A DNA stretch of 58,167 nucleotides from Candidatus Omnitrophota bacterium (GCA_029561735.1 JAKQWZ010000024.1:1-58167); one strand, 5' to 3'. Counted from the first letter of the stretch, positions 2,279 to 9,853 are shown. Notes: generated from the sequence alone by a model not told the origin. A program made the numbers and translations.

Positions 2279-3835
2279 TCAAGTATTCCTCATTACCTGA
2301 GAAAAATAACCGCCTGTCAAAGCGTCAAGGCTGGCAGTGAGTTCTTTAAGTTTTATTTCCTTGTCCAGGCGCCTGCGCCTATCCTCAATCGGCAGGTTCT
2401 CCAGCTCTAACTTTACCCGCTGGCGTTCAAAATATAATTTTGTCACTTCATCAAGTATATCATTGCGCAGCTCAACCATCAGGCGCGAACGCACGTCTAT
2501 GGATGCCTGGGCGTCATTCCAGATAAGCTCGCTTAAATCCCAACTCATGCTTATATCCCACTCTATAGCAGGGCTTCCTTTTACCAAGACATCATCTCCG
2601 TTCTTGGTGCTGGAACCGGTCTCCCAATGCCACAGGTCAGTTACATTCCTTCCGACGCTAGTGGTTATTCTGGGCAATATGGCTTTTTTAGCTGCGGCTT
2701 TCCTCCAATTTTTTATCTTTTCAGGCTGGACTTCGGCATATTTAATAGCAGCCTTCTGGACATCCTCTATATCAGGTCCATCCTTAAATTCATTTAATTG
2801 AATTAACCCGGAATATAGATTCTGCGGGGCAGAAAATGTGCCCCTGAATAACCCCTCCTTGCAGGCGGCAAAAATGTTTCCGTTATTGTCAAATTTTATT
2901 TCATATATCTTTGTTGACAGCAAATCAAGCGTAAGTTCGCGCCATCTGTCTTGCCTGCGCTCAAAAGCCCCGCTGCTGATTACGGCAACCGGATTATTCT
3001 GCTGTGAATAGGCCAGATAATAAACATCTTTTTCCAGCAACCCGTAATCATCCAGAAAATCCCAAGCCATTCCGGAATTTATGCTGACTGCCACACCTAC
3101 TGTTGTCGATGCCACCAGGCATTGAGGGCTCTTAGAGCTGACTGCCAGATGCCTGATCCCGCAGGCCCGCTCCACATGCGCTTCATGAATTTCTTCCTGA
3201 TCCAAGGCTTCCTCTTTGCCTATGGCAACATATACCTTTTCCCAGCTTTTTGCGCTGTCAATACTTTTCAGAATGCCTTCAGAACAAGCCATATAGACGG
3301 TTTGGGGCTCGGCCTCAGAATTAACTAAAGCGGCTATGTTGCTATTGCTTTTTACAGCAGTAGATTTTTGCCATGTGCGGCCAAGGTCGCGGCTTTCAAA
3401 TAATCCGGACGCAGTGCCCAATAAAACCCTTGCCTGAAGCCCTAACACTGCGCTGCACTGCCTCTCTAAATAGTTTCTTCCTTTAAATACCCGCCTCCAG
3501 CTATTGCCGCTGTCGCCTGAATAGTATAATCCGTTAGAAGTCGCCGCCCAAATGCGCCTTGCATCTTGGTAAGAAAAACAAAAATTATTTACTGAATTAT
3601 CCGCACCGGGCAAAACCAGGGCCATTCTCCATTTTTTTCCTCCGTCAACGCTTTTATAAATTGCCTTATTTGTCCCGGCAAGGATTACGGATGGATCATT
3701 TTTCCAAAGCAATATTGATTTTACCGGGCTTACCGGAGCACTGCTTAATTGCTGCCACTGGCCTTGATTGGCAAAACACCTGCCTGCCACGATCAAACCA
3801 AACATAGCTGCCAGCACCAAAGACTTTGTTTTCAT
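2279..3835 (-). CDS. Secreted BNR/Asp-box (YCF48-like) beta-propeller protein with C-terminal single outer-membrane-efflux (TolC-like) repeat
   Basis: ATG at 3835 follows AAGGAGG. Signal peptide MKTKSLVL..CFA. Repeated Asp-box motifs (SVDGGKKW, SGDSGNSW, SRDLGRTW, SIDSAKSW, SINSGMAW). The C-terminus has an OEP-like pattern (AILPRITTSV...ISMSWDL...EVTKLYF...LDALTGG). Confidence 0.7.
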   Translation of the reverse strand: MKTKSLVLAAMFGLIVAGRCFANQGQWQQLSSAPVSPVKSILLWKNDPSVILAGTNKAIYKSVDGGKKWRMALVLPGADNSVNNFCFSYQDARRIWAATSNGLYYSGDSGNSWRRVFKGRNYLERQCSAVLGLQARVLLGTASGLFESRDLGRTWQKSTAVKSNSNIAALVNSEAEPQTVYMACSEGILKSIDSAKSWEKVYVAIGKEEALDQEEIHEAHVERACGIRHLAVSSKSPQCLVASTTVGVAVSINSGMAWDFLDDYGLLEKDVYYLAYSQQNNPVAVISSGAFERRQDRWRELTLDLLSTKIYEIKFDNNGNIFAACKEGLFRGTFSAPQNLYSGLIQLNEFKDGPDIEDVQKAAIKYAEVQPEKIKNWRKAAAKKAILPRITTSVGRNVTDLWHWETGSSTKNGDDVLVKGSPAIEWDISMSWDLSELIWNDAQASIDVRSRLMVELRNDILDEVTKLYFERQRVKLELENLPIEDRRRRLDKEIKLKELTASLDALTGGYFSQVMRNT

Positions 3836-3918
3836 TTGCCACCTCCTTAAATATACGCATAACCTCTTGCCTGGCTTAATTGACGCAAGAGATGGCAAAA
3901 TCTAACAAAGTTTTTTTA

Positions 3919-3949
3919 CAAAAAGGGCTGGACAATTAAGCCCAGCCCT
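3919..3949 (-). terminator. Intrinsic terminator after the first minor-pilin cassette
   Basis: 8-bp stem AGGGCTGG/CCAGCCCT (3924-3931/3942-3949), followed on the minus strand by a T5 tract. Confidence 0.75.
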
Positions 3950-4022: not shown

Positions 4023-4973
4023 TTAATATAAATTATGCGCCTCTTTCCATAAAATCTTAGGCCTTGTATTACTCATGCCCAAATTCTGCACCCCGGTCAT
4101 ATAAGACGCTTCATATTCAAGAGTAATGCCTCCGCTTAGGGTAGCATTACCACCCACCCAGATCCCTCCGGTTACATTTAAAGCGCCCCCGCCACCCTTA
4201 ACAGTAAAATCTCCCTGAGCATAAATACAGCCGTCTACGCTTACATTTCCCGCTATTGTCGTATCGTATATCGTCTCTCCTCCTACCACAAAGAATCCAT
4301 GGACACTATCATTGCCCTTAAGGGTAAGCGGCCCTTCTAAAAAGACAACGTTAGGCACACCCGGAGCATACCAAAAAGAATCCGGGAAAGGCCCGCTAAG
4401 GTTATCCGCATCGTGATAATTTCCCTGCGCCTTGCTTAATTCGCGCAATTCGTCAAACTTAAGCTGGTCAAGTTGAGTAATTGAAGGATCGTACGTAACC
4501 GTCCCTGTTATATTATCCGGCGCAGGTATGATCGGCGGATTAGCCTCGCCAGCATAAATAACATTGCCATCTATAGAATAAGAGGTTCCGTTAATGGTAA
4601 TATCGCCTACTACAAAAAGCACGCCGCCATAATAAGGAATGCTTAATTCAATAATACGCTCTGCGCGGTTGGATATTTGCGATGGCACAAAACCATGAGA
4701 CCAGATAGTGGAAGCATCTACTATTTCAACGCTGTATTGGCCATGTGATAAAGATGTAAGCGGTATATTAACCGGTTTCCAATCATTGGCCTCCATCTGG
4801 ACTAAGGCCTGGCTCACGCCGGCCTCAGCCAGCCAGAATGCCCGGGTTGAATCAAGGTACCTGCTGGCAACATTGCTTTCAGAAACGCTGCCCATAAAAA
4901 ATGCAGCTCCTAAAATAGTCAGGACCGCTATTACAATATAGCAAATAATCAGGGCTATGCCGCGTTTATTCAT
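4023..4973 (-). CDS. PilX/GspK-like minor pilin with C-terminal beta-rich domain
   Basis: MNKRG|IALIICYIVIAVLTILG: class III signal lacking Glu5, typical of PilX. AFWLAEAG helix; GNVIY/GPLTLKG beta repeats. Confidence 0.8.
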   Translation of the reverse strand: MNKRGIALIICYIVIAVLTILGAAFFMGSVSESNVASRYLDSTRAFWLAEAGVSQALVQMEANDWKPVNIPLTSLSHGQYSVEIVDASTIWSHGFVPSQISNRAERIIELSIPYYGGVLFVVGDITINGTSYSIDGNVIYAGEANPPIIPAPDNITGTVTYDPSITQLDQLKFDELRELSKAQGNYHDADNLSGPFPDSFWYAPGVPNVVFLEGPLTLKGNDSVHGFFVVGGETIYDTTIAGNVSVDGCIYAQGDFTVKGGGGALNVTGGIWVGGNATLSGGITLEYEASYMTGVQNLGMSNTRPKILWKEAHNLY

Positions 4974-4975
4974 AC

Positions 4976-5449
4976 TTATTGGTTCCTCACTCTCACTTGT
5001 TCAATCAAAGAAAATGTAAGCAGGCGCGAATGAACAGTTTTACTTGCCACCAAAGTAATTTTTTGCAAAGGGATATATTCATTGGCGGACGAATTAAAAG
5101 AAAGAGGGGCGAAATACAAACCTGCTATATCATTGGCTATTACCTGGCCTCCGGGAGACCTGCGCAATTGGCCCGCAATCAGGGAATACGTGATATTATC
5201 TTCACCCGGCCTGTTAAAAGTAATACTGTTTCTATTTAAGTCTTTATCCGTTATTGAGATTAAATAAGCCTGCCTTATTTCCCTGACTAACTGGCTCATG
5301 CCCTGCCTTACCTGGCGCTGAAGATTAAGCGAAACCAGGTTAGTATCATAATTAATTTTGGCTATATTCAAAGCCCCGTAAATTCCCCCTATGATTAAGG
5401 TAAAAATCAAAAAAGCCACTAATACCTCTAATAAAGTTAATCCTTTCAT
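4976..5449 (-). CDS. Minor pilin (PilW/GspJ-like)
   Basis: MKG|LTLLEVLVAF prepilin cleavage/methylation motif. Confidence 0.85.
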   Translation of the reverse strand: MKGLTLLEVLVAFLIFTLIIGGIYGALNIAKINYDTNLVSLNLQRQVRQGMSQLVREIRQAYLISITDKDLNRNSITFNRPGEDNITYSLIAGQLRRSPGGQVIANDIAGLYFAPLSFNSSANEYIPLQKITLVASKTVHSRLLTFSLIEQVRVRNQ

Positions 5450-5919
5450 CGTTTTGAAATTAAAGTTTCTAATTCTAAGTACCTCGTATTTGAATTATGC
5501 CTGTCTTTCCAGCTGACCGTTATAATAACACCTAAAGGATTTGAGCTGCCGGTGGCAGCAGCAACAATTGTTTCGCTATTTAAGATACAGGGATAGGCAT
5601 ACGGAGAAGGGCAACCCAATCGGTTTCCGATTGTGGCAGAATTCCAGTTCCAACTGTTTAAATCTATTGTGCTAAGCTCGTTAACCCTTGCATATTCCAT
5701 TATGTCTTCCATTACAAATTCGGCATGGGCCATCGCGATGCTTTTATTGCGGTTTGCCCGGTCAAGAAGCGCACAGGTTATAAATACTTGTAAAATACCC
5801 GCGATAACAAAAGCCAGGATCATGACTGCTATAAGCAACTCCGGAAGGGTGAACCCTTTCAGGGAAGGCTTACTAACCTTATTAAATAAGCGGTCTTTTA
5901 AGGCTAATATTTTATCCAA
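5446..5919 (-). CDS. Minor pilin (PilV/GspI-like)
   Basis: KG|FTLPELLIAV prepilin motif. TTG start follows GGAG; 4-bp overlap with the next gene. Confidence 0.85.
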   Translation of the reverse strand: MDKILALKDRLFNKVSKPSLKGFTLPELLIAVMILAFVIAGILQVFITCALLDRANRNKSIAMAHAEFVMEDIMEYARVNELSTIDLNSWNWNSATIGNRLGCPSPYAYPCILNSETIVAAATGSSNPLGVIITVSWKDRHNSNTRYLELETLISKR

Positions 5920-6015
5920 GGCAAAGCTCCTCTTTATTATTAAAATATATTATAGACCGCTTACTTTACTATATCAATGATTTTTAAGAAGGGCTGTTGG
6001 AAAATTATACCCCGA

Positions 6016-8217
6016 TTATTCATCCAGCGAAAGCAGGTCCTTGCGGATCTCTTGGTATGCTGGGGTGTCTATCTTGCGGTAAATTTCCTGTGCAGACCTG
6101 AAAAATTCACGGGCCTTATTTTTCTGGTTCTTTTCTTTATACAGTAATCCCGTATTATGATACGCCCAGGCCAGCTCTTGAGGCGCATCTATTTGCTTGC
6201 ATAATTTTATTGTTTTTCCATACTGCTCCAAAGCCTCATCCGGGGCCCCCATCTGCGCATAGAGCTCTCCCAGCATATTGTAATCAGCTGCCAAGGCAGG
6301 CAGATTTCCACGGCTTTGGTCTATTTTTATGCCTTTATCGTAATATTCCAGCGCCTTTTTATAGTCTTTTTCAAAACTGGCTATCTCTCCCATATTAAAA
6401 TAGCAGTCGCTTAATTCATGGGGCAGCTTTAATTTAACAAAGAGTTTCCTGCTTTTCTCATAAAATTCTTTGGCAGAGGCATAATCGTCCTTATCAGTAA
6501 AAACATAAGCCATGCTGAAATAGTCGCAGGCAAGATTATATTTATGTTCGCGGGAATTCGGATGGTTACGGTTTATCTCGGAACTTTTAGCCAGCAATTC
6601 CAGCGCCTTACCGTGTTCCTGTTTATCCACATACCAAGTAGCCATTCTTCTAAGCGATGCTGCCTCATTTAATTTATCGTTATACTTCCTGCTTATTTCC
6701 AGGGCTTTTTCATAGAATTCCATGGCTTTCGGGTAATTGCCGTTATTATAATAAAGCCAGCCGATACCGTTATAAGCAATAGCCAGGTTCTTCATGTCGG
6801 CTTTCTTCTGGCTGTGCAGCGCGTAGTCAAAATAATATTTTAATGCGCGGTCAAAATCCCCCTGGCGCTGATAGACATCCCCTAATAAAGCATATGCCGC
6901 CAGATACCGCGGATTTCTATCAATAATCCTGTTTACTGTTGCGGCTGCTGCGGTATTATCGCCTTTCAAATACATGTTCCGGGCGCGCGTATATAAATAC
7001 CTGTCCGTAGGGCTGATCTCCCTTATTAGCAAAAAAGACAAGGCCAGGCCTGCGGCAATGCCGGTAACTGCCAGCGCCCTTAATAGCCCTTTTTTATGCT
7101 TATGCAATAGTTGGCTCAAAGATAAATTGAAAGCCTTATTCTTAGACTTAAAAACCCTGAAATCCGGGTCTCCGTAGAAAAGATAATTTGCCCAGGATAA
7201 CCCGGCTGCATTATCCTGCCGGAAAAGCTTCAAGCGGGCCTGCCTTACTGCTTCGCCCATGCTTTGGCCGTTTAATAAGCGGGAATAAAACTCCCGGGCA
7301 AATATCAGCGCCTGTTTATCCTCTATCCGCCTGGCCACGCCGATGTAATGTTTGACGCCGGAAAATAAAAAAGCCGCCGCCAGATTATAGGCCCTGGTCT
7401 GGTAATCTTCTCCGATAGATTCATTCTGCTGGCTCGCCGAATTACACGCATTAGAAAATACCAGATTCGGCAGGCAGTGCGAATGGCCCAAGGCAAGTAT
7501 GTCTTCAATGCTAAACCTGCCGTCATTAAGCACCCATCCGCTTTTTTCCGGCTCATCAGCGTCATATTCGCAATGGCCGGCAAAATGGACAATATCATAA
7601 TCTCTTAAAGTTTTTTTAACATATATGGATTCCACGCGGTTGGATTTAAAATCAACATGCAGGCTCTGGCGTTTTTTATCAAATTGATTTCTGATATTCA
7701 GCCCTTCCTCATACGCAGACTTAAGGTCATTGGTGGGATTTGCCAATATAAGCATCTTGATCGTACTGTTTATATCGCGGTAAAGCGCCGGAACAACATA
7801 TTCCTTTGTACGCACAAGCCGTCCGATATTAAACTTCAGGCACAAAAATTCATGCCCGTCAAACACCAGTTCCCAAGGAATATCAATAAGCTCTTCATCT
7901 AAAGATAAAGTCAGCCCTGTTGAGGCTGAATTTTTAAGCCGGTCTTTTATCTGGCGCGGCAGTAAATGGTCCCAAAGCAGCTGCGCGGTTTTTTGGAAGC
8001 TTTTTAACAAGTCCGGTTCCGGGTCATAACTTCGTTCTATCCTGTTGAGTATAGAGACCGTTTCGCGGCTTAACATCTTTATTTCATTAAAAGATACCCG
8101 TTGCTGCTGATAATGCCTTACTGTTGAAGATGTATCGTTTTGGCTGAAAATACAGAATTTCAGCGCTTCATACTGCTTAAAGACCTCCAGGATTAACCCG
8201 TCAGAAGCTTTTATCAT
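6016..8217 (-). CDS. CHAT (caspase/HetF-like) protease with one TM helix and C-terminal TPR repeats
   Basis: IPWELVFDG, catalytic His in DIVHFAGH and catalytic Cys in LVFSNACNS, WANYLFYGDP. TM segment ALAVTGIAAGLALSFLLI. TPR repeats (AYNGIGWLYY, CYFNMGEI, DYNMLGELY, AYHNTGLLY). Confidence 0.9.
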   Translation of the reverse strand: MIKASDGLILEVFKQYEALKFCIFSQNDTSSTVRHYQQQRVSFNEIKMLSRETVSILNRIERSYDPEPDLLKSFQKTAQLLWDHLLPRQIKDRLKNSASTGLTLSLDEELIDIPWELVFDGHEFLCLKFNIGRLVRTKEYVVPALYRDINSTIKMLILANPTNDLKSAYEEGLNIRNQFDKKRQSLHVDFKSNRVESIYVKKTLRDYDIVHFAGHCEYDADEPEKSGWVLNDGRFSIEDILALGHSHCLPNLVFSNACNSASQQNESIGEDYQTRAYNLAAAFLFSGVKHYIGVARRIEDKQALIFAREFYSRLLNGQSMGEAVRQARLKLFRQDNAAGLSWANYLFYGDPDFRVFKSKNKAFNLSLSQLLHKHKKGLLRALAVTGIAAGLALSFLLIREISPTDRYLYTRARNMYLKGDNTAAAATVNRIIDRNPRYLAAYALLGDVYQRQGDFDRALKYYFDYALHSQKKADMKNLAIAYNGIGWLYYNNGNYPKAMEFYEKALEISRKYNDKLNEAASLRRMATWYVDKQEHGKALELLAKSSEINRNHPNSREHKYNLACDYFSMAYVFTDKDDYASAKEFYEKSRKLFVKLKLPHELSDCYFNMGEIASFEKDYKKALEYYDKGIKIDQSRGNLPALAADYNMLGELYAQMGAPDEALEQYGKTIKLCKQIDAPQELAWAYHNTGLLYKEKNQKNKAREFFRSAQEIYRKIDTPAYQEIRKDLLSLDE

Positions 8218-8912
8218 GATTTAATATCCACTGAAATATCGGCTAAGCCGGAATCCTGTGAGGATACCTCAAGGCTGTATTTGCCCAAAAGTACGTGCTC
8301 AAATGTAACCGCTGTTTTATCAATAACGTAAGATTCTAATTCCGCGCCGGACTGAATAAGGCTCACCCGGCAGTCTTTAAGAAGTTTTAATGTCTTTTTA
8401 TTCCTGACAGAGACAGTAACATTAAAACAGCCGCGCGAACAGGAATCTATTTTTACCTCAACCCTGATATTATTGATATCCTTTACAATTAAAACGCTGT
8501 CCTTAAAATCCCTGATATTGCGCGAACGCAAGCCCTGCATCGGGATCATTTCCTGCCCCATAAGCACCTGCCCGTTTGTATAAATAAGCTCAAAGATCTT
8601 TTCGGCATTCTTTAATATTATCTCAAATAACCTGCCCTTTTCAGAATCTGCTATTAGTTTTAACTTTGCCCTGAGTTCCTGGGGCAAATTATAATTTTTC
8701 CCCCTGGCAACCCTTATCTGCGTAAGCAATACTTCGGCACAAAAAGAACAGCTTTGCAGATGGCTGCTGACTTCAAGGCTTTCAGGCCCTGAAAGTAAGT
8801 TTTGCGCAAAACAAGCCAGTATTTCTTCATCAGGATGGCCCTGCGGCATTTTAAGGCAAGGGCCGTTTTTTTTATAAAACATCTTTAATAATTTTGGAAG
8901 TTTTTCAGCCAT
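8214..8912 (-). CDS. Soluble zinc-binding (zf-HC2/ZAS) anti-sigma factor-like protein with C-terminal beta-sandwich
   Basis: HPDEEILACF...HLQSCSFC (HxxxCxxC). No TM segment. Follows the ECF sigma gene and has an ATGA overlap with the CHAT gene. Confidence 0.78.
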   Translation of the reverse strand: MAEKLPKLLKMFYKKNGPCLKMPQGHPDEEILACFAQNLLSGPESLEVSSHLQSCSFCAEVLLTQIRVARGKNYNLPQELRAKLKLIADSEKGRLFEIILKNAEKIFELIYTNGQVLMGQEMIPMQGLRSRNIRDFKDSVLIVKDINNIRVEVKIDSCSRGCFNVTVSVRNKKTLKLLKDCRVSLIQSGAELESYVIDKTAVTFEHVLLGKYSLEVSSQDSGLADISVDIKS

Positions 8913-8946
8913 ATTATAACCTCTGCCTAAAATAGACGCAAAAAGC

Positions 8947-9552
8947 CTATAAATCTAACATAAAACCTTTACCTTGCATACAGTCCCTAAGCTTAGCTGT
9001 GGCGCGGGATTTACGCATATCCAAAGCAGACCTTTTAAGCCTAAAAATTAATTCCAGTTCTCTAGATGTCGCCTGCTGATAGTAGGCCAACTCCATAAGC
9101 CTTAATTCATCCGGATCAAGCTTGAGCATACAGTCCTTAAGTTCAAGAAAAAGCTCATCGTCAGCCAGATTCTGCCTTGCGGATTTCAAGTTGCTTTGTA
9201 AAAACTCATGCAGGCTTGAACCCGTGCTATTTTCTTCGTCAAGTGACAACAAGGGCTTGGTTTTTCTCAAATAACTTATCACGTAGTTAACCGTAACCTG
9301 CCGCAGCCACGTGGCAAGCCGGCATCCGTTTCTGGCTTGAAAGGTCTTTAACTTTGCGAAATCATTTTCCGCCAAAAGCAGGAATATCTCGTGGCAAAGG
9401 TCCTGTGCATCTTCAGGCGTAAAAACAACACCAATTGATCTGGAAGTCCGGAAGATATACGAATAAATCAGGCGGGAATAGCGGTCTACAAACTGGCTCC
9501 AGGCATTTTTATCCCGGCAGGATATCCGCCGGACAAATTCCAGCTCATCCAT
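8947..9552 (-). CDS. ECF RNA polymerase sigma factor
   Basis: AWSQFVDRYSRLIY, DAQDLCHEIFLLL (region 2.2), LATWLRQVTVNYVISYLRK, and a region 4 HTH; 201 aa. Confidence 0.9.
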   Translation of the reverse strand: MDELEFVRRISCRDKNAWSQFVDRYSRLIYSYIFRTSRSIGVVFTPEDAQDLCHEIFLLLAENDFAKLKTFQARNGCRLATWLRQVTVNYVISYLRKTKPLLSLDEENSTGSSLHEFLQSNLKSARQNLADDELFLELKDCMLKLDPDELRLMELAYYQQATSRELELIFRLKRSALDMRKSRATAKLRDCMQGKGFMLDL

Positions 9553-9568: not shown

Positions 9569-9853
9569 CTATTTTATTTTCTTTCTATGCTTATTATCAA
9601 GGACCTGCGCCTCAATATCAATAGATCCTTTTCTTTTAGGAGAAACGTCCATGCCGGAACTGATCTTTTTGACAAAAAACCATGAAGTTAATAAAAACAA
9701 AACGACAAGCGCCGCCTCTATAATCAGCCAGGTCAGCGGCTTAAAAAACATCCAGCCAAAAAAAAGGTTTAAAATGATTAAAAAAGGCAGGAAACAGCCT
9801 GTTTGATTAAGCAATACGAAGGAACCAAATGAGGGCCTACTTGTCTGCGGCAT
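9569..9853 (-). CDS. Small membrane protein
   Basis: Two hydrophobic segments and a basic tail. It fills the gap between co-oriented genes; the start is uncertain. Confidence 0.6.
   Translation of the reverse strand: MPQTSRPSFGSFVLLNQTGCFLPFLIILNLFFGWMFFKPLTWLIIEAALVVLFLLTSWFFVKKISSGMDVSPKRKGSIDIEAQVLDNKHRKKIK

Follow-up and report, generated by a model that had tools for sequence, protein, structure and literature searches.

The textbook routes to the release of sigma factors of the extracytoplasmic function (ECF) type are a two-step cascade of membrane proteases and conformational sensing. To our knowledge, CRISPR systems (Craspase) are the only setting in which sigma release has been linked to caspase-like CHAT proteases, while for the fused, periplasmic DdvA such a role is still hypothetical. 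Here, we describe a locus of three tightly spaced genes in a Candidatus Omnitrophota bacterium (GCA_029561735.1, JAKQWZ010000024.1:1-58167; the whole analysed stretch of 58,167 nucleotides is called the window), which encodes an ECF sigma factor, a soluble zinc anti-sigma-like protein and a membrane-anchored protein, CHAT-TM-TPR, in which a CHAT domain is joined through a transmembrane (TM) helix to tetratricopeptide repeats (TPRs). From sequence comparison and structure prediction, we propose with a probability of about 0.55 that a signal from outside the cell activates the cytoplasmic CHAT domain, which would then cut the anti-sigma and free a competence-type sigma. The nearest model is found among the HetF-type proteases, and regulated proteolysis of anti-sigma factors is in itself already known.

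HetF of Anabaena sp. PCC 7120 has its CHAT domain in the cytoplasm and its TPRs in the periplasm, joined by one TM helix, and cleaves the small cytoplasmic regulator PatU3 at the bond between R117 and S118, for which its authors point to the arginine preference of family C50 in clan CD (PMC9457339). The Omnitrophota protein shows the same order of CHAT, TM helix and periplasmic TPRs, and the R117/S118 bond of PatU3 resembles the candidate bond R129/S130 in the anti-sigma discussed here. In contrast to the present locus, PatU3 is an inhibitor of cell division/heterocyst formation rather than an anti-sigma, and no sigma factor is involved (PMC9457339). Orthology with HetF was rejected, the window protein scoring 23 bits with model NF045509, whose cut-off is 1200. 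An earlier interpretation of the locus, made from the DNA alone and hereafter called the sequence-only reading, had cited HetF as a membrane regulator, but missed both its identical layout and its arginine specificity, and overlooked the DdvS/DdvA pair altogether.

In Myxococcus xanthus, DdvS/DdvA connects an ECF sigma, a zinc anti-sigma domain and a TPR-CHAT part across the inner membrane, and CHAT-dependent release has been proposed (PMC11506125, PMC6061681). DdvA is a single polypeptide whose CHAT domain is periplasmic and has an incomplete site, release is thought to need intramembrane cleavage by RseP, and the system controls a CBASS/CRISPR island (PMC11506125, PMC6061681). The same three functional parts occur in the Omnitrophota locus, equally with no CRISPR trigger, but there they are divided between two proteins besides the sigma, with CHAT on the cytoplasmic side, a soluble anti-sigma and predicted targets that concern DNA uptake. 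A DdvA-type anti-sigma was accordingly rejected as a description of the locus: the two functions reside in separate proteins, the anti-sigma has no TM segment, and CHAT precedes the TM helix with no signal peptide before it.

Within CRISPR systems, the type III-E Craspase offers the closest parallel, in that the TPR-CHAT protease Csx29 cuts Csx30, which sequesters the ECF-like CASP-sigma/RpoE, whereupon the sigma is released for transcription (PMC10028731; summarised in 10.1101/2023.06.23.546230). As is proposed here, a TPR-CHAT protease acts on a protein that holds a sigma factor; activation, however, comes from RNA-guided target binding with Cas7-11, no component is membrane-bound, every part being soluble, and Csx30 does not belong to the zinc anti-sigma factors. 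Type III-B systems of the CalpL-CalpT-CalpS and SAVED-CHAT/PCaspase kinds likewise use a signal-activated protease on an anti-sigma- or sigma-like protein beside an ECF-type sigma (10.1101/2023.06.23.546230), but differ in that cyclic oligoadenylates activate them in the cytoplasm, CalpL is a Lon-type protease and their context is defence. Full-text literature searches returned no paper on a split, membrane-anchored arrangement or on sigma or competence regulation in Omnitrophota, and the 2021 ECF classification paper does not mention CHAT.

All window features described below lie on the minus strand. The sigma gene (8947..9552, 201 aa) is followed by the anti-sigma gene (8214..8912, 232 aa) and the CHAT-TM-TPR gene (6016..8217, 733 aa), the TGA of the second and the ATG of the third overlapping as ATGA at 8217-8214, as read directly from the DNA. 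The translations contain HFAGH (residues 211-215), SNAC (255-258) and KHKK (372-375) in the CHAT protein, and HLQSCSFC (51-58) and MQGLRSR (125-131) in the anti-sigma. The description of the three-gene feature in the sequence-only reading is thus correct in every detail, from the three open reading frames (ORFs), their order and coordinates to the ATGA coupling. The window comes from a 1.2-Mb metagenome-assembled genome (MAG) of Omnitrophota (G000; completeness 82%) and is uniform in base composition throughout. It holds no tandem CRISPR array, and no Cas1 was found in the 82%-complete genome; the independence from CRISPR claimed earlier is supported. Membership of a type III-E Craspase module finds no support in the array search of the window or the Cas1 search of the genome (Cas7-11 itself was not searched for), and the sigma scores 22 bits with NF041236 (CAS_III-E_sigma), below its cut-off of 100.

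CHAT-TM-TPR has more than 700 homologues of ~733 aa at ~50% identity, nearly all of which bear the label Omnitrophota; some matches labelled Planctomycetales, Margulisiibacteriota and Patescibacteria look like a product of how Omnitrophota-like MAGs have been labelled. In an even sample of 201 Omnitrophota genomes, made up of 18 from the window's family and 183 others, the protein is encoded in single copy in 18/18 family members, and only 3 of the 183 others give a match, with the CHAT part alone matching. The order sigma, anti-sigma, CHAT is kept in all 20 loci from the sampled genomes. With the anti-sigma as bait, 53 further loci were found and 70 were scanned in all: sigma lies directly upstream of the anti-sigma in 69 and CHAT is present in 68, every gap being a contig end. 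An order that is repeated throughout the ~70 related loci, as far as their contigs reach, goes far beyond chance, and the co-occurrence analysis that the sequence-only reading had proposed for its functional unit of three genes comes out in its favour. A phylum-wide spread, on the other hand, is not upheld, the 201 genomes showing one genus-rich family and three sporadic cases. A pattern-based scan of named genomes reached close relatives only.

A library-wide profile search extended the anti-sigma family to 486 cluster representatives at E ≤1e-10, all of ~225-245 aa, and among the best 150 of these representatives no natural fusion of anti-sigma and CHAT was found. Four relatives at 20-25% identity to the window anti-sigma were followed into their neighbourhoods, and in three of them a CHAT gene comes next: two belong to operons of sigma, anti-sigma and a protein that joins a cyclase-homology domain (Guanylate_cyc) to CHAT, and one lies directly before a CHAT gene whose product has CHAT first. 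In the two operons (L192, 3022-4767; L195, 1591-3327), the adenylate/guanylate-cyclase-homology domain is N-terminal to CHAT and takes the place of the outer sensor, so the whole switch would be cytoplasmic. The outer part also varies among the three distant Omnitrophota triads, being a 1500-aa TPR region in one, an F5/8-type C (discoidin) domain in another and almost nothing in the third. Because a CHAT gene stands beside three of four relatives this divergent, in varied domain settings, the anti-sigma/CHAT pairing appears from these comparisons to outlast deep divergence and the exchange of every other domain.

Among the sporadic triads, one (L041, 3255-4967) lies beside a large serine recombinase gene and an XRE-like gene, and another (L042, 2504-5697) beside genes that by eye resemble replication/relaxation-type mobile-element genes, one of these genes carrying a GTTAGA-N15-CGTCTA site. 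These neighbours suggest occasional horizontal transfer of the cassette.

In the CHAT-TM-TPR protein, the CHAT caspase-like domain (residues 75-350; 7168..7995) matches Pfam PF12770 at E 6e-35 and 121.5 bits, against a cut-off of 24, and its dyad is intact, H215 of HFAGH (7575..7573) and C258 of SNAC (7446..7444) both being invariant in one set of 43 and another of 20 sequences. A PDB sequence search with the CHAT half returned nothing relevant. TPR_12 (E 1.8e-39) and other TPR families match over residues ~400-730, and AlphaFold2 (AF2) predicts a TPR solenoid with a predicted local distance difference test (pLDDT) score above 90, together with a continuous helix at 368-400. The Kyte-Doolittle (KD) 19-mer maximum of 1.96 falls at residue 380, within a hydrophobic stretch at ~380-398 that follows KHKK, and combining KD values with the AF2 model places the single TM helix at residues ~376-398 (7024..7092) and the TPR array, which would be extracytoplasmic, at 400-733 (6019..7020). 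A hydrophobic 19-mer with KD 1.9-2.9 follows the CHAT domain in 19/20 relatives as well, whose 15-residue flanks hold 3-8 K/R on the N-side vs 0-4 on the C-side.

The CHAT domain occupies the N-terminal part of its protein, which has no signal peptide, and neither the sigma nor the anti-sigma contains a hydrophobic 19-mer with KD above 1.8. Given the missing signal peptide, the K/R-rich N-terminal flank and the lack of TM segments in the other two proteins, the CHAT domain, the anti-sigma and the sigma are predicted to share the cytoplasm, with the variable domain facing outward; the discoidin domain that occupies the C-terminal position in one relative fits an extracytoplasmic location. The topology put forward in the sequence-only reading, with one TM helix, a cytoplasmic CHAT domain, an outer C-terminal part and an anti-sigma that is not membrane-bound, agrees with the single hydrophobic segment, with the positive-inside rule as seen in the relatives and with the swappable outer domain.

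The anti-sigma is composed of a helical anti-sigma domain (~25-90), a conserved segment (97-136) and an Ig-like beta-sandwich (139-230). In an AF2 model built with a 40-sequence alignment, residues 29 to 89 form four helices (pLDDT 70-85), which is the build to be anticipated in a class I anti-sigma domain, and the sandwich spans 139-230 (pLDDT 80-87), while the stretch 97-136 falls below pLDDT 50 and is unplaced in the monomer. Its zinc motif, H51-x3-C55-x2-C58 (8739..8762), lies in the N-terminal helical domain of a protein encoded beside an ECF sigma, as in zinc-binding anti-sigma (ZAS) proteins, and is invariant in alignments A1 and A3, being lost only in relative L043. Homologues carry Pfam zf-HC2 (PF13490), and the window protein itself gives a weak match to the ChrR N-terminus (E 0.003). 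Searched against PDB, the family profile finds as its best match the DdvA N-terminus, weakly (E 0.1), and RsiW at E 0.55. A fold search of PDB with the model returned only generic Ig-like sandwiches, with TM-scores of at most 0.3 on the query, and the C-terminal domain is therefore left unnamed.

A ZAS-type motif would also suit a thiol- or zinc-stress sensor like RsrA, in which case CHAT-TM-TPR, whose gene stands behind a predicted sigma-dependent promoter, would be a downstream member of the regulon, engaged for example in processing envelope or pilus proteins or in shut-off. We consider this improbable, as relative L043 has lost its zinc ligands while keeping the rest of the protein and its CHAT partner, the best-conserved part of the anti-sigma lies outside the zinc domain, and CHAT is tied to the anti-sigma family over a deep divergence that would not be expected of an ordinary target gene.

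That best-conserved part is the block of residues 108-145 (8478..8591), in which 21/38 positions are invariant or at least 90% conserved, compared with ~20% of the helical domain and ~32% of the sandwich. In alignment A3, whose 26 sequences from the anti-sigma family share 20-30% identity with the window protein, six columns are invariant: H51, C55, C58, R129, F204 and Y212, the last two belonging to the beta-sandwich. The residue after R129 is Ser, Gly, Asn, Thr, Ala or Asp, and in distant members polar segments that differ in length stand on either side of the arginine. This pattern argues that R129 matters, as circumstantial evidence that does not imply a P1 role. The site that the sequence-only reading had guessed, in the linker around MQGLRSR, proved a good choice, as it contains R129, one of the six invariant residues, and the small residue that comes next agrees with the R/S cut made by HetF. 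By this reasoning, the CHAT protease probably cuts the anti-sigma after the invariant Arg129, the candidate bond R129/S130 mapping to nt 8528..8523.

Nevertheless, the triad may be a signalling unit in which CHAT does not cut the anti-sigma, serving instead as a membrane scaffold or partner switch that retains or frees it through binding, for which the R129 segment and the beta-sandwich would be the docking surface, or acting on another substrate such as the sigma itself or a competence protein. Co-occurrence and translational coupling show partnership and not catalysis on the anti-sigma, a conserved segment unplaced in the monomer model is what any binding interface would give, the anti-sigma and CHAT genes are predicted to be co-induced from one promoter, and a type III-B caspase does cut a sigma-like protein itself (10.1101/2023.06.23.546230). 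Yet the His-Cys dyad is invariant in every relative examined, which places catalysis under selection; the sole invariant residue of the linker, apart from the zinc ligands, is an arginine with a small residue after it, as HetF and family C50 of clan CD prefer; and the pairing survives swaps of every other domain. Taken with these points, a non-cutting role is possible but rather unlikely.

The output of the module came into view through its promoters. When the DNA upstream of a BNR gene that follows the triad in many loci is aligned, a motif of two boxes emerges, tGTTAGAttt-N12-CGTCtATT, with a terminator ahead of it and a Shine-Dalgarno (SD) sequence and ATG behind it. The core promoter, GTTAGA-N15-CGTCTATT, precedes both the anti-sigma/CHAT genes and the BNR gene. 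The copy before the anti-sigma (8929..8964) has its -35 box GTTAGA at 8959..8954 and its -10 box CGTCTA at 8938..8933, and scores 35.0 with a position weight matrix (PWM) made from 25 BNR-upstream sites only, all other sites being unseen in training. The second copy (3876..3911; -35 GTTAGA 3906..3901, -10 CGTCAA 3885..3880, the motif spanning 3906..3880) scores 45.4 and is the top match in the genome. The gene behind it (2279..3835) encodes a secreted BNR/Sortilin-like beta-propeller protein (Sortilin-Vps10 and PSII_BNR matches), a predicted target; its true start is the ATG at 3835, which follows the promoter and SD, as the TTG at 3898 lies inside the promoter. The BNR gene is found downstream of the triad in 39/70 loci, many of the others being limited by contig ends; no other neighbour or predicted target of the module is as constant as its product. 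The regular expression T[TA]AGA-N13-17-[CG]GTC matches upstream of BNR in 37/39 related loci; at least two of the 37 matches look spurious and the two missed loci have the motif by eye, so the count is best read as ~35/39 or more.

Across the 1.2-Mb genome, the PWM finds eight sites, seven scoring at least 23 and the spoVG site 18.4, whereas shuffled genomes give 0-1 sites with a maximum of 19.5; a ninth site, before comM, was found by its exact pattern. Every site in this genome lies just upstream of a gene, and the genes and operons concerned are BNR, anti-sigma/CHAT, comEA-comEC-pilB-pilC, comM, spoVG-aroK-dprA-topA, recA-recX, two ORF6N genes and a Y1 (IS200-like) transposase gene. One box is therefore common to comEA, comEC, comM, dprA and recA in this genome, and the association recurs over ~30 genera: the PWM motif precedes comEA in 20 of ~25 genera, recA in 17/25, spoVG-aroK-dprA in 11/16, and the anti-sigma gene in 57/70 loci. 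Of the 18 family genomes with the triad, 17 contain the exact 14-base pattern, each between 1 and 12 times, but the 183 other Omnitrophota genomes hold 0-1 copies, no more than a reversed control, and one of the few matches outside the family sits on a distant genome's triad contig. In divergent triads, CGTCTATT is retained in its usual position ahead of the anti-sigma gene, with GTTGGT or GCAAGA as the -35 box instead, a combination that would be expected if sigma region 2 were conserved and region 4 had drifted. An ECF-type promoter, made up of a -35 box and a -10 box that contains CGT, thus stands beside the triad's own operon, located before the anti-sigma gene and not before the sigma gene. 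Its adjacency to the triad, its co-distribution with it and the ancestral location of the site together make it very likely that the motif belongs to the triad's sigma.

In model transformable bacteria, the natural-competence regulon is defined by one regulator-specific box shared by comEA, comEC, comM, dprA and recA. ComX/SigX in streptococci and SigH in staphylococci are alternative sigmas dedicated to comEA/comEC, dprA, recA and related genes through one shared promoter box. Pheromone circuits, adaptor-mediated degradation or cryptic expression govern their activity, and they are not known to answer to an anti-sigma and a caspase-like receptor. The Omnitrophota module resembles them in output only, with no sequence kinship beyond the sigma-70 family. 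Its output appears to be a DNA-uptake and recombination regulon, that is, a programme like natural competence.

Two further observations concern individual sites. Those before the ORF6N and Y1 (IS200/REP-type) transposase genes (G000:C13:18540, C65:96772 and C93:48531) have an SD and an ATG behind them with the customary spacing. The stretch that separates recA from its ECF-type promoter (G000:C43:7596-7731) contains an SD with an 8-codon ORF and then a good sigma-70 promoter, TTGACA-N17-TATAAT, so recA seems to have two tandem promoters.

The closest published CHAT/sigma systems serve defence, and one may ask whether the triad is an anti-phage or abortive-infection module in the manner of Craspase or DdvS/DdvA, and not a housekeeping regulator. 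The recombinase and mobile-element-like neighbours of the sporadic triads, as well as the ORF6N and Y1-transposase genes in the regulon, would suit such a role. Against it, each of the 18 family genomes carries the triad once and in conserved synteny, the genome has no detected Cas1, and the conserved targets are comEA-comEC, comM, dprA and recA. Besides, a comparison of the three proteins with PADLOC-DB 2.0 gave only a generic TPR model and two weak matches at E ≥2e-5. A defence function thus seems very improbable.

The sigma factor itself is of the ECF type (group 4), with regions sigma-2 and sigma-4 only. Its residues 17-192 score 72.5 bits with TIGR02937 (sigma70-ECF), whose cut-off is 42.9, and Pfam Sigma70_r2 matches it with E 1.5e-7. 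In most relatives (L025-L043), a membrane pyrophosphatase-like gene with its terminator precedes the sigma gene, and TGnTATAAT, an extended -10 box, ends 6-10 nt before the sigma ATG, from which it follows that the sigma mRNA would be leaderless or nearly so. The window differs in that the sigma gene begins 16 nt after a 94-aa membrane-protein ORF, with sigma-70-like boxes (9621..9571) inside that ORF. Positive autoregulation was looked for and not found, the PWM giving no site upstream of the sigma gene. Meanwhile, the -35 box of the anti-sigma promoter sits in the last sigma codons (8947-8959), where ATG TTA GAT TTA TAG reads M L D L stop, so the sigma C-terminus and the protein's own promoter constrain each other. 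In distant triads, the -35 box GTTGGT likewise encodes V-G-F before the sigma stop.

As a separate matter, the genome contains an open frame of 11,104 codons (G000:C93:66872-100183) that runs off the contig end. Several of its stretches score above the sigma-70/ECF profile cut-off, with recognisable region 2 and region 4, as sigma-like modules inside a giant protein.

Several findings weigh against anti-sigma cleavage by CHAT as the trigger of this regulon. With regard to the proteins, the CHAT core falls below pLDDT 50 in the AF2 model; the window anti-sigma itself gives no zf-HC2 match at E <0.01; the invariance of R129 may reflect a contact with sigma or with the CHAT protein instead; and one of the four divergent anti-sigma relatives has no CHAT gene on its 3.9-kb contig. 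With regard to expression, the sigma gene itself lacks the motif and has in relatives the sigma-70-type TGnTATAAT box, which is unusual for ECF systems, and co-induction of the protease with the anti-sigma fits a role in feedback as well as one in activation. Finally, the genome encodes other ECF-like sigma factors, and for this reason the assignment of the motif to the triad's sigma draws on adjacency and co-distribution.

In the mechanism that we favour, cleavage-driven sigma release, the ECF sigma would be produced constitutively and held by the N-terminal four-helix domain of the soluble zinc anti-sigma. CHAT-TM-TPR would act as a single-pass receptor, with its TPR array in the periplasm and its CHAT domain in the cytoplasm, and an outside cue would switch CHAT on, probably through the assembly of receptor molecules, as the analogy of caspases and of the DdvA dimer suggests. 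The activated domain would cut the anti-sigma after Arg129 in an L-R/S motif, between the sigma-binding domain and the beta-sandwich, and sigma would be released. RNA polymerase carrying the freed sigma would then read the promoters described above, turning on genes for uptake and recombination and for the secreted BNR protein, and new anti-sigma and protease made from their own promoter would provide feedback and reset the switch. As a whole, the sequence-only reading anticipated the unit, its topology, its independence from CRISPR and the choice of site, and was incomplete on the output, since the module's own promoter and its DNA-uptake regulon were missed.

Going further, we tentatively entertain the idea that this large family of the uncultured Omnitrophota runs competence from one master switch of a previously undescribed kind, in which the caspase-like output of a receptor, by cutting a soluble zinc anti-sigma at the invariant arginine, directly frees an ECF sigma with neither an intramembrane protease nor CRISPR, and that the switch is a portable, ancient cassette fitted with a TPR, discoidin or cyclase-homology sensor, or with none; on present evidence, this wider view is a possibility that we hold with some doubt. 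For ultra-small cells such as these, which may depend on a host, meeting a host or prey is a conceivable cue that would tie attachment to the scavenging of DNA.

Besides the BNR gene, the region downstream of the triad holds three minor-pilin-like genes (4023..5919), with weak ComGE-, ComGF- and PilX-like matches and profile matches to N_methyl, NF041013 and NF041002. The two directly after the CHAT gene (4976-5919) are those with the weak matches to the competence-pilus proteins ComGE and ComGF, and they occur only at the window locus. The pilin genes (5919..4023) were rejected as part of the module, as they are missing from all 69 related loci and have a sigma-70-like promoter of their own (5977..5949); a scan for promoters and terminators found no terminator between the CHAT gene and the first of them. 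They are followed by an intrinsic terminator (3924..3949; 10-bp stem with 7 GC pairs and a T-run).

If the proposed cleavage takes place, the module would be free-standing, chromosomal and vertically inherited, with a caspase-family enzyme as the cytoplasmic output of a transmembrane receptor, and caspase-like signalling would reach further in bacteria than is now known. With a clear candidate for the substrate and for the cut site, R129/S130, the proposal is testable with three cloned genes and one reporter. For the Omnitrophota, in which no genetics is available, the locus gives a first handle on gene regulation, comprising a promoter, a small regulon for DNA uptake and recombination and the switch that would control it. 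If true, the mechanism would explain how Omnitrophota nanobacteria decide when to take up DNA.

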